A DNA stretch of 64,000 nucleotides from Curvularia clavata. Its lineage: Eukaryota. Location: contig CP089281.1 in the NCBI GenBank assembly GCA_023920165.1, positions 682,001 through 746,000 on the forward strand, given 5' to 3'. Below the pieces are notes generated by a model. That model had not been told where the DNA came from. It saw only the letters and a program-made list of their open reading frames with translations, and ran no database searches. Made by a program: the position numbers and the translations under genes. Shown here piece after piece: positions 58,755 to 62,012 of this stretch (its first letter is position 1; the number at the start of each line of letters is the position of its first letter).

Positions 58755-58820
58755 ATGATCTGCAAAAGCATCGTCGATAACCCACTCGTCGCCGACCCGT
58801 ACGTCAACTTCAGAAATTGA
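58755..58820 (+). other. uORF MICKSIVDNPLVADPYVNFRN* (21 aa)
   Basis: It is the only AUG in the predicted spliced leader; weak context (tatATGa). Confidence 0.55.
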
Positions 58821-58840
58821 TCGGCGCTGTCCACTACAGG

Positions 58841-58944
58841 GTAAGCTTTCCCCTGCTGGTCCCTATAATTTGCTCTGCCAACCAAACCACGGCAATTCGG
58901 GTTGCAATGATTCAGTGCTGGTGCTGACCCGTTTTCGCAAATAG
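58841..58944 (+). other. 5'UTR intron of the C2H2 gene
   Basis: G|GTAAGC donor, GCTGAC branch and AATAG acceptor. Confidence 0.75.
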
Positions 58945-59018
58945 GCATCGAGCTGCACTTGAAGCTGCACGCCTTTTCTTTTCATTTCCCTATTGCATTA
59001 CCTACCACATCTTCCACC

Positions 59019-60774
59019 ATGGTTGACTACGCCCCATACACGCCAGGCATGGCTCACGACTTTGAGCTCTATGCCCACAATCAGGAACAGCACATCGATT
59101 ACCAACAGAACCAGTCTTTCATGCCCAGCTCAACATTCGGCATGGATCACTCTTTCACTGCACCTTTCGACCACATGGCTCCTCTGTCAGAGGCCTCAAG
59201 GCTACAAGACCTTCAGTTCCACTACGACGCCATTGCACAGGGAGTCAAGCCATACCAGTACCAAACACCAGCGGGATCTCCTCAATCAACATCGAACTCT
59301 TTCCACGAGATGCCTCCTGTTCTTTCAGCCTCGTCAGAGTCTGGTGCTTCAGTATCCTCATCAGCTATGGGCTCTCCATCACTTGTACCCCAATTCGACA
59401 ACTCATGGCAGCCAATGCCTGTGGGCCTCACATCCGGCTACGAGTACTCAGGCATGGTAGCAAACGACAAGTCGTATGTGGGTAAGTCAACAACAATTTC
59501 TTCCACAGTCACCGCGTCTTCTTCTTTCTCTCCTTCATCTGTCGTGTCTTTCACATCGCCAATCTCGAACAAAAACGTCTTCAAGACACCTGTTACTCCG
59601 GCTTCGGCCACTAGGAGGTCGAATTCCCTTTACTGCCTCCAAGCTCATCAACGCGACTCTTCGTTGGTTGTTTCTTCTTCTATCTCATCAACGCCGCGTT
59701 TCTCTAAGTCATTTCCAACTTGTTGGTTACCTTCAACTTTGAAAGGCTCTATATGCTAACATGTCTCAAGTAGATCCTAATCTCATCCAGCCTTTCGCCT
59801 TCGCGCCTCAGAGCCCCTACCCTGAGATCAGGACTACCCCATCTCCCTATTTCCCTGTTATTGAGCAACCACCCTCTCCAGCTCTCTCCCAGTTCTCCTC
59901 ACACAGCCAGCGACCAGGCTCCGCAAACATCAAGAGGGGTAGCGCCAGCCCCTACCTTCACACTCAACAATATCACCCTTACAACACCCAACGTCGAAGC
60001 TCAGTCAACTCCATTCACTCACACCACTCTGCTACGAGCCGCAAGAGCTCCAGCAGCTACGACGTGGACGATGAAACACGCGAGAAAGGCATGTGCCCGC
60101 TCCCAGAGTGTGGACGTGTCTTTAAAGATCTCAAAGCACACATGCTCACCCACCAGAACGAGAGACCCGAGAAGTGCCCGATTACCACTTGCGAGTATCA
60201 TGTCAAGGGGTTTGCAAGGAAGTACGACAAGAACCGTCATACTCTCACTCACTACAAGGGCACCATGGTCTGTGGCTTCTGCCCGGGTAGTGGTTCAGCG
60301 GCTGAGAAGTCGTTCAACCGCGCTGATGTCTTCAAGAGGCATCTCACATCTGTCCATGGCGTTGAGCAAAACCCTCCAAACAGCCGCAAGAGGAGCTCGT
60401 CAGGCCGCAAGTCATACAGTGGCGCACAGCCCAACGTCGCTGGTACTTGCTCCACTTGCTCAGTAACCTTCGCCAACGCACAAGAGTTCTACGAGCACTT
60501 GGATGACTGTGTGCTGCGTGTCGTGCAGCAAACCGACCCCACCGAGGCCATCAACCAACGCCTCCTCACATCTGTTGCAGAGGACAAGAACGTCACCGAG
60601 ACTCTTGACCGAAACGGTCTCTCCAAGAGCATCGAGTACACAATCCCCAAGTACGAGGATGATGATGAAGAAGATTACGAAGAAGAAGAGATCGACAACG
60701 ACGACCAGGATGATGCAACATGGGGCAGCCGTCGCTCAGGCAAAGGCAGTAGCAAGTCAGCCAAGTCGCATTGA
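59019..60774 (+). CDS. C2H2 zinc-finger transcription factor with four fingers; 487 aa using intron 59482-59773; probable readthrough isoform ending at 61242
   Basis: ccaccATGg start. Fingers: CPLPECGRVFKDLKAHMLTH, CPITTCEYHVKGFARKYDKNRHTLTH, CGFC..FKRHLTSVH and CSTC..FYEHLDDC, followed by an acidic tail. Size and finger number recall Magnaporthe COS1, but I cannot confirm orthology. Confidence 0.92.
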
Positions 60775-61242
60775 CAATCAACACATCCTCGAGGTGTCGG
60801 CGCAACGCAGCACGTCGAGGGTGGTAACCCAGCTCAACAAATTTCTTCATCTCGCGTTACCAGGTCTGGTCCGCGTCCTGGTCTCACCTTCTCTAAAGGC
60901 GGTGTGGCCATCACCGGTGCCGGACGCAAGAAGCGCAAAAACTACCCTGTCTCATGGGGCTGCGCTACCGACAAGATGAAGATGAAGAAGCGTGTCCTGT
61001 GTGTATATGACGGACAACGCAGACTGTGGAAAGACGATATGATGCTTGACCAAGAGTTTGAAGTACGCATGAAGCTGCCTGATGGCAAGGCGTACGTCAC
61101 AGACTTGGATGTGCAGACGCTTAACCGCGCCGATGCACTACACGGTGCCACTGCCGAAGAGAGGGGCACGTGGGTACCTGACAACATCATTGGCAATAGC
61201 GCTCCATCCATGGAGCCAATGCCACTTGAATGGACTGTTTAA
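60775..61242 (+). CDS. In-frame 155-aa C-terminal extension after the TGA (putative readthrough domain)
   Basis: Same frame as the finger exon with no stop until TAA at 61240-61242. Protein-like sequence: GLTFSKGGV..GRKKRKNYPVSWG..KMKKRVLCVYDGQRRLWKDDMMLD..YVTDLDVQTL. Confidence 0.75.
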   Translation, partial: QSTHPRGVGATQHVEGGNPAQQISSSRVTRSGPRPGLTFSKGGVAITGAGRKKRKNYPVSWGCATDKMKMKKRVLCVYDGQRRLWKDDMMLDQEFEVRMKLPDGKAYVTDLDVQTLNRADALHGATAEERGTWVPDNIIGNSAPSMEPMPLEWTV

Positions 61243-62012
61243 AGTACCTGTGGGGCAAACATCACTTGAAGTTTGTCTTTCTTTGGATTCGAGCATTTGG
61301 AAGCGAACGCATTTGTGCAACAATTTTTTTGGGATTTCCAAATGACACACAAAGCAAACAAAAAAGGTTACATGGGCAGGTTTCATGGTTGACCCGTACA
61401 CAGAGACGGCTGATGACATGCAATGACTACGAGAATTGTTTGTTGTACTACCAAGATTTTGTTATTTATTTTTCTCTATTACCGATCGATACCACTGGGA
61501 GTTTTGTACTCTTGTCTTGTCCTTCCTCATTCTCGGGCTTGTTGGCGTTGACAAGGGAAGGACTAATGAGTGGATATGAATGGAAACAACATATATCATA
61601 CGTGGCTGGCCGCAGGATGTAGTGTTTTTCTCTGATCTCTCTCACTCAGAATCATGCTCCTGCATTTAGCACAATCAATTAAAACATACTAGTTAAATAT
61701 TCCAGGTCTTTTGTAATGCGCAAAATGTGATATTAGCTACGATAATCACAGCTTCAGAATTATAGTAAAGTCGACGTTTAGCATGAAAACCCAATTTCAC
61801 GTTAAGGATTCATCCTTGCCATACATGTAACTGCATTCTCAATGACAGCAGATTATGATGCGAAAGGAAAGGGTCCGTGCTCAGTCACGGCTCAGCAGCG
61901 CCCCGCCGTGGGGAAGGCAACAGCGGCGGAGGCAGCTTGGAGCTCCATCATCGCCTGCCCGCCCGTCCGCTTGCCCAGCGCCGCAACGACACTACACACG
62001 ACTCACTCCATA

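Follow-up and report, generated by a model that had tools for sequence, protein, structure and literature searches.

Gene structure and transcripts at the locus

We analysed a 64,000-nucleotide stretch of the Curvularia clavata genome (GCA_023920165.1, contig CP089281.1, positions 682,001 to 746,000), hereafter called the window, and all positions given below are those of the window. The forward strand carries a gene for a putative C2H2 transcription factor, whose reading frame is interrupted by a TGA at 60772..60774, a proposed leaky stop codon. Coding exon 1 (59019..59481) begins with the ATG at 59019-59021 and gives the N-terminus MVDYAPY, as in the named orthologue models; it is followed by a 289-nt GT..AG intron (59482..59770) and by coding exon 2 (59771..60771), which encodes the zinc-finger region and an acidic stretch and runs up to the TGA. 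The Pfam zf-C2H2 match at 60094-60153 (E = 3.8e-5) scored 24.3 bits, slightly below the gathering score of 25.2, and homologues are named generically by their sources as "C2H2-type domain-containing". Downstream of the TGA on the same strand, we found the hexanucleotide CAATCA, a 3' context of the CARYYA type (60775..60780), and an RNA hairpin that starts 9 nt after the stop (60781..60825), with core stems formed by 60784-60792 with 60815-60823 and by 60794-60797 with 60810-60813. Both lie within a 155-codon extension of the frame (60775..61239), which is supported by translation, homology and substitution rates and ends at a TAA (61240..61242), the terminator of the predicted long isoform. 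Residues 1-36 of the extension form a linker, a conserved domain occupies about 60880-61194, and the basic stretch GRKKRKNY lies at 60922-60945.

The first-pass annotation, made from the letters alone, had read the junction as AAG TCG CAT TGA CAA TCA with the TGA at 60772-60774, and had noted that CAATCA conforms to CARYYA and that the frame then stays open for 155 codons up to the TAA. It had also listed the blocks GRKKRKNY, YPVSWG, KKRVLCVYDG, RLWKDDMML and YVTDLDVQTL, and had placed the first in-frame AUG about 200 nt into the extension. All of these features were found as described; the ATG is residue 68 of the extension, 201 nt in. Regarding the products, the two-product layout that it proposed stood, but its lengths of 487 and about 643 amino acids (aa) had to be corrected: the RNA-supported model, with its ATG at 59019, predicts 488 aa for the short product and 644 aa for the read-through one.

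For transcript evidence, contigs from four public runs belonging to four studies (X1, X2, X6 and X7) were aligned to 58900-61500. Note that these runs have no RNA label on record; they were taken as RNA because all four skip the 289-nt intron as well as an intron in the 5' untranslated region (5'UTR). As examined by these contigs, the stop at 60772 was spanned in every run by a single contig with hundreds of letters on either side, namely record 4 of X1 (59770-61500), record 7 of X2 (59771-60991), record 13 of X6 (58944-61500, skipping the intron alone) and record 18 of X7 (59771-61500). No joint near 60772 and no variant letter at 60772-74 was seen in the contigs of the four runs, so that the stop was neither spliced out nor changed by an A-to-G replacement, and the 84-nt GT..AG stretch at 60749-60832, which the first-pass annotation had named as a potential intron, was unused. 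The runs differed from the window and from one another at other sites (12 listed positions), indicating that the same stop is common to several haplotypes and is neither a sequencing error nor specific to one strain. Thus, the UGA is present in the mature mRNA.

The contigs also gave details of the gene model away from the stop. Skipping of 59482-59770 was seen in the contig alignments of all four runs, and the intron itself was covered by low-depth contigs. The 5'UTR intron (58841..58944, GT..AG, 104 nt, forward strand) was missing from the contigs of all four runs, in which 58810-58839 was joined straight to about 58945; its exact ends were assigned from the GT and AG in the sequence. A minor alternative 49-nt GT..AG intron (59722-59770) appeared in low-depth contigs of X2 and X7 at roughly 1-8% of the depth of the main joint. 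This splice form retains 59482-59721 in frame and would give 80 extra residues, and an insert of the same kind is present in the Pyrenophora seminiperda model P0024. In seven related loci from the survey described below (L010, L011, L012, L015, L019, L026 and L031), the frame is open for 611-689 codons upstream of the junction stop, which exceeds the length of exon 1 plus exon 2 in the window; what is an intron in the window may in these loci be kept in frame or belong to the coding sequence. In addition, X7 has an in-frame 3-nt deletion at 60679 in the acidic stretch, and X1 and X2 have a G-to-A difference at 60832, immediately beyond the hairpin.

Conservation of the stop codon, its context and the hairpin

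To compare the junction with that of relatives, we scanned metagenomes with the extension. The scan gave 523 matching stretches, 133 of which encode a relative, and the best 80 of these 133 were examined. Specifically, the junction stop was located by walking upstream from the ...KDDMML... anchor to the first in-frame stop, except in L032 and L033, where the start of the tblastn match was used in place of the anchor. A TGA was found at the same junction and in the same frame in 51 of the 80 loci, with the finger open reading frame (ORF) upstream in the same frame wherever a stop-bearing locus was long enough. The stop was TGA in all 51 and UAG in none; the next codon was CAA in 51/51, and the six letters after the stop were CAATCA, CAATTA, CAACTA or CAACCA (that is, CAAYYA) in every case. 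In the remaining 29 loci, the frame is unbroken and the TGA-CAAYYA cassette is absent. A sense codon at the junction was seen in more distant lineages only among the 80 loci, and the comparison of orthologues that the first-pass annotation had proposed came out with stop and CARYYA-type context at the same codon.

The stop that ends the extension behaves differently from the one at the junction. It varied among the relatives (TAA in 12, TGA in 29 and TAG in 1, n = 42), and its contexts were varied; note that the script for the final stop chose junctions by motif, and solely its count of terminal stops was used. Since TGA is the final stop in 29 of these 42 sequences, these organisms use it as a normal terminator too.

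The case is strengthened by a feature that the first-pass annotation had not mentioned, a conserved hairpin starting 9 nt past the stop. The hairpin of the window (60781-60825) has a folding energy of -26.5 kcal/mol with a z score of -4.05, and 0 of 200 shuffled sequences folded equally well. The 51 loci and the window together contain 43 distinct 150-nt junction sequences, and 34 distinct sequences were aligned over a region that begins 9 nt ahead of the stop and reaches about +80. In this alignment, columns 13-15 and 18, which belong to the hexanucleotide, are invariant, and the RNAalifold consensus consists of 9 base pairs (bp), a 1x1 internal loop and 4 bp, 13 bp in total. Standard pairs occupy 98.4% of the 442 cells of this structure, compared with 42-59% when the partner is slid by 1-3 columns. 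Changes on both sides of a pair were found in 17 cells within four pairs versus 1.7 in shuffled alignments, none of 500 of which reached as high a number. The closing pair is G-C in 12 sequences, A-U in 11, G-U in 10 and unpaired in 1, and its covariation couples a synonymous CGA/CGG change with a Val/Ala change. In the window, a C-to-U change in the 5' arm (CCUCGA) is compensated by a G-to-A change in the 3' arm (UCGAGG). Glycine wobble positions told a similar story at the nucleotide level: the paired columns 33, 60 and 63 are identical in 34/34 sequences, as opposed to C in 19 and T in 15 at the unpaired column 66. The hairpin is therefore conserved and supported by covariation.

We also built a covariance model of the stop together with the hairpin. 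It had one match in the window (67.8 bits), the next having an E value of 0.93, so that the window holds no second copy. Among the related loci, 45 scored at least 57 bits, L045 scored 25.8 bits, and the 29 stop-less loci gave no match; most of the matching loci are members of the training set or near-copies of them. Five stop-bearing loci (L021, L027, L030, L039 and L065) form a subclade near Neocucurbitaria-like sequences, in which TGA-CAAYYA is retained. The deletion of the hairpin in this subclade also removes the peptide HPRGV...HVGGG, and the substitute hairpin is shorter and of the GGUGG/CCACC type.

The extension as a coding domain and its representation in gene models

Of 1212 candidates from a homology search with the 155 residues of the extension, 646 proteins reached E <= 1e-3. 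Each of the 120 homologues listed bears the precomputed label PF28332.1, and together they represent many classes of ascomycetes; the assignment of the extension to this family comes solely from these precomputed labels. In the local Pfam search, the extension matched no family (top match TOC159_MAD, E = 0.027, under the cut-off); NCBIfam and Protein Data Bank sequence searches gave chance-level matches only, and a protein atlas search gave no usable match.

Selection on the extension was estimated by the Nei-Gojobori method with our own script from 44 distinct extensions of stop-bearing sequences. The median ratio of nonsynonymous to synonymous substitution rates (dN/dS) was 0.139 for the whole extension (616 pairs, dS about 1.35). 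By region, the medians were 0.082 for the domain core, 0.361 for the linker and 0.069 for the upstream finger part. Such low ratios at saturated synonymous sites indicate that the extension has been kept as protein with the stop in place, and they bear out the expectation in the first-pass annotation that the region downstream of the stop is under coding constraint. The extension is conserved from about residue 36 onwards, hence already ahead of the first in-frame AUG, in agreement with the view in the first-pass annotation that a separate gene is unlikely. The G-R-K-K-R-K stretch is invariant or nearly invariant; our guess is that it could serve as a nuclear-localisation signal.

Among gene calls from metagenomes, ENA and Logan assemblies, 22 have the finger region and the domain in a single uninterrupted ORF. 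Three of these 22 (P0025, P0028 and P0030) read ...H-W-Q-L... where close relatives have ...H-stop-Q-L..., and they continue beyond the usual end with many more W residues. In these three, the TGA was probably taken as Trp by a gene caller using genetic code 4, as an accidental artefact.

Distribution was described through named neighbours, each being the best BLAST hit to named proteins, so that the names are labels by likeness and no classification. Stop-bearing loci adjoin Stemphylium, Alternaria, Pyrenophora, Neocucurbitaria, Didymella, Neodidymelliopsis, Lophiotrema, Massarina and Trematosphaeria, and also Alectoria (79%), Flavoplaca (75%), Pycnora (69%) and Bogoriella (67%). Stop-less loci adjoin Hymenoscyphus, Cladophialophora and Aulographum. 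A quick maximum-likelihood tree was made of 105 rows, of which 48 have the stop, 27 are open and 30 are named models with no state assigned; L009, L020, L032, L033, L074 and L080 were left out because they were too short or the anchor was missing. The state of the junction changed at least three times on this tree, which is unrooted, so that gains and losses are indistinguishable on it. Since stop-bearing sequences from either side of the tree share one hairpin sequence, the stop cassette would appear to have arisen once, anciently, and to have been lost later in some lineages.

Public gene models represent this junction poorly. When 15 named Pleosporales models were aligned to the read-through translation, the stop fell precisely within a gap in all 15, although the 5' boundary of the gap varied between models, as the first-pass annotation had anticipated in stating that gene predictors would hide the junction by inventing introns. 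Moreover, in 11 pairs of locus and model, including Alectoria- and Flavoplaca-like ones, the junction gap was present in nine models; the Pycnora and Bogoriella models (P0041 and P0068) cross the junction with unrelated residues. The introns that the 15 models place over the stop have no backing in the RNA data of this species, which points to a systematic annotation error.

Proposed programmed readthrough and alternative explanations

The interpretation that we favour, with a probability of roughly 80%, is programmed UGA readthrough, by which one mRNA gives isoforms of 488 aa and roughly 644 aa. Most ribosomes would terminate at the UGA (60772-74) and release the 488-aa protein, and a fraction would decode the UGA via a near-cognate tRNA and continue to the TAA at 61240 to give the protein of about 644 aa. 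The signal would have two parts, CAA-UCA of the CARYYA type right after the stop and the 13-bp hairpin 9 nt on. The UGA would in this way separate the C2H2 zinc-finger body and the acidic stretch from the conserved C-terminal region with GRKKRK. According to PMC3542737 and PMC4132726, readthrough of both UAG and UGA is stimulated by a CARYYA that follows the stop, and extended stem-loops starting about 8 nt 3' of the stop are frequent stimulators of readthrough. In the literature that we searched, no report of readthrough in this gene family was found.

The signal resembles several known systems and coincides with none of them. It shares with the type I signal (tobamovirus type, as at the leaky stop of the tobacco mosaic virus replicase) a CAA-YYA directly after the stop, with all six positions conserved. 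It differs from type I in that the stop is UGA instead of the usual UAG, the gene is a cellular fungal gene and not that of a plant virus, and a conserved 3' hairpin is present too. Type II signals consist of UGA-CGG or UGA-CUA with an extended stem-loop about 8 nt downstream, and a Drosophila readthrough case with a 3' stem-loop is also described (PMC3542737 and PMC4132726). The fungal junction is similar to these in having a UGA and a covariation-supported stem-loop starting 9 nt after the stop; unlike type II, the codon after the stop is CAA, neither CGG nor CUA, in 51/51 loci. The fungal signal is thus a hybrid of a type I context and a type II-like structure. PDE2 is reportedly an example of the yeast CAR-NBA readthrough context; the present gene differs from the yeast cases in having a 155-aa domain conserved across classes, and a hairpin. 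CAAUCA itself fits CARNBA, a motif that works in yeast and to which a fungal translation apparatus is responsive when it follows a stop (PMC4132726). At the level of the protein, a Drosophila POU/Oct factor offers a parallel from another kingdom and another protein family, in that stop-codon readthrough is reported to alter the C-terminus and the activity of a transcription factor (PMC8417969).

Several observations weigh against readthrough or limit its support. TGACAAYYA occurs once in the 64-kb window versus 2.21 occurrences expected, which is not beyond chance; the motif alone is therefore not evidence, and its weight comes from position and conservation. The codon preceding the junction stop is not conserved. 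The canonical hairpin is lost in 5 of the 51 stop-bearing loci, those of the Neocucurbitaria-like subclade, and its replacement there, at the same 9-nt offset, is weaker (z from -0.55 to -2.29). Single-sequence folding was also weak for L054 (z -1.29), L060 (z -1.69) and L045 (z +0.42). An AlphaFold2 model of the extension, made from a 59-row alignment, was poor (mean pLDDT 57.9, pTM 0.27) and gives no function. The RNA data are assembled contigs, which lose rare variants such as minor spliced or edited forms. Finally, the passage of ribosomes over the UGA, the isoform ratio and the role of the long form are inferences, as is the presence of both halves in one polypeptide in this lineage, a point that favours their separate production.

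RNA editing of the UGA to UGG at some developmental stage could give the long form as well, and we regard this as very unlikely. Stage-specific stop-loss editing with local hairpins exists in filamentous ascomycetes, and the cases in Sordariomycetes (DBF2 and others) resemble the present gene in yielding a C-terminally extended regulator from one gene with a local hairpin nearby; that system, as described in PMC13123824, acts at the sexual stage on a TAG whose edited A is in the loop of the hairpin. The stop of the present gene is TGA in 51/51 loci and lies 9 nt upstream of the hairpin, outside its loop, and the closest named relatives are Dothideomycetes and lichen fungi. Rare or stage-specific variants would be invisible in contigs; those of the four runs nevertheless show no A-to-G change at 60774 and no other edited letter at the stop, and editing would leave the invariant CAAYYA unexplained.

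A rare or condition-specific splice that removes the stop has equally little to commend it. Two candidates were considered, the in-frame 84-nt GT..AG stretch at 60749-60832 and a 45-nt one at 60749-60793. The introns drawn at the junction in all 15 named Pleosporales models would suit this explanation, as would the branch-site-like CTAAC that some relatives have behind the stop, and the loss of rare forms from contigs. However, none of the four runs has a joint at the junction, though the minor 49-nt intron is visible in the same data, and the public models disagree on the 5' boundary. Furthermore, the peptide is conserved in frame right up to the stop on both sides, the conserved blocks are separated by about 9 codons, too few for an intron, and the 12 nt displayed ahead of the stop contain no GT in some relatives. 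Unconventional splicing of the Ire1/HAC1 type was also weighed and set aside, since the stop is not flanked by paired loop motifs, the frame does not change, and a joint was not seen.

It is also very improbable that the stop is a true terminator and that the domain is made separately, be it from a second transcript, by reinitiation, or by initiation at an internal or non-AUG site. Selection acts on the downstream ORF, which hence must be translated somehow, and such a route would satisfy this. However, the first in-frame AUG (residue 68) lies inside the conserved region, whose conservation starts from about residue 36, and a separate cistron would have no need of a conserved TGA-CAAYYA and hairpin. 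In addition, the two halves are one ORF in the stop-less lineages, and the RNA contigs are continuous over the junction. That the UGA encodes selenocysteine has a negligible chance: a UGA with a nearby hairpin recalls selenocysteine recoding elements, but no SECIS was found at E <= 10 in an Rfam scan of 60300-61800 (five matches, all far under the gathering scores and none relevant), stop-less relatives have Leu or other residues at the site, not Cys, and Dikarya are not known to have the selenocysteine machinery.

Beyond the occurrence of programmed readthrough itself, UGA-CAAYYA with the hairpin could be an ancient regulated switch that sets a tunable ratio of two isoforms differing in behaviour and predates the split between Dothideomycetes-like and Lecanoromycetes-like lineages, a proposal that we consider tentative and on balance doubtful. 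If it is true, the short form would retain the fingers and the acidic region, the long form would add the nuclear-localisation-signal-like stretch and the domain, and lineages without the stop would make the long form only. The hairpin would then be the adjustable part, with temperature, helicases or an RNA-binding protein among the conceivable influences on it. Such a switch would represent deeply conserved translational control of a regulator that is misrepresented in fungal annotations. Viruses offer well-known cases of programmed readthrough, as do a few animal and yeast genes, and so deeply conserved a case in a fungal transcription factor would be a clean cellular model for the combination of a six-base context with a covarying hairpin. 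The lineages without the stop and those without the hairpin are natural controls, which make the function of the isoform ratio directly testable.

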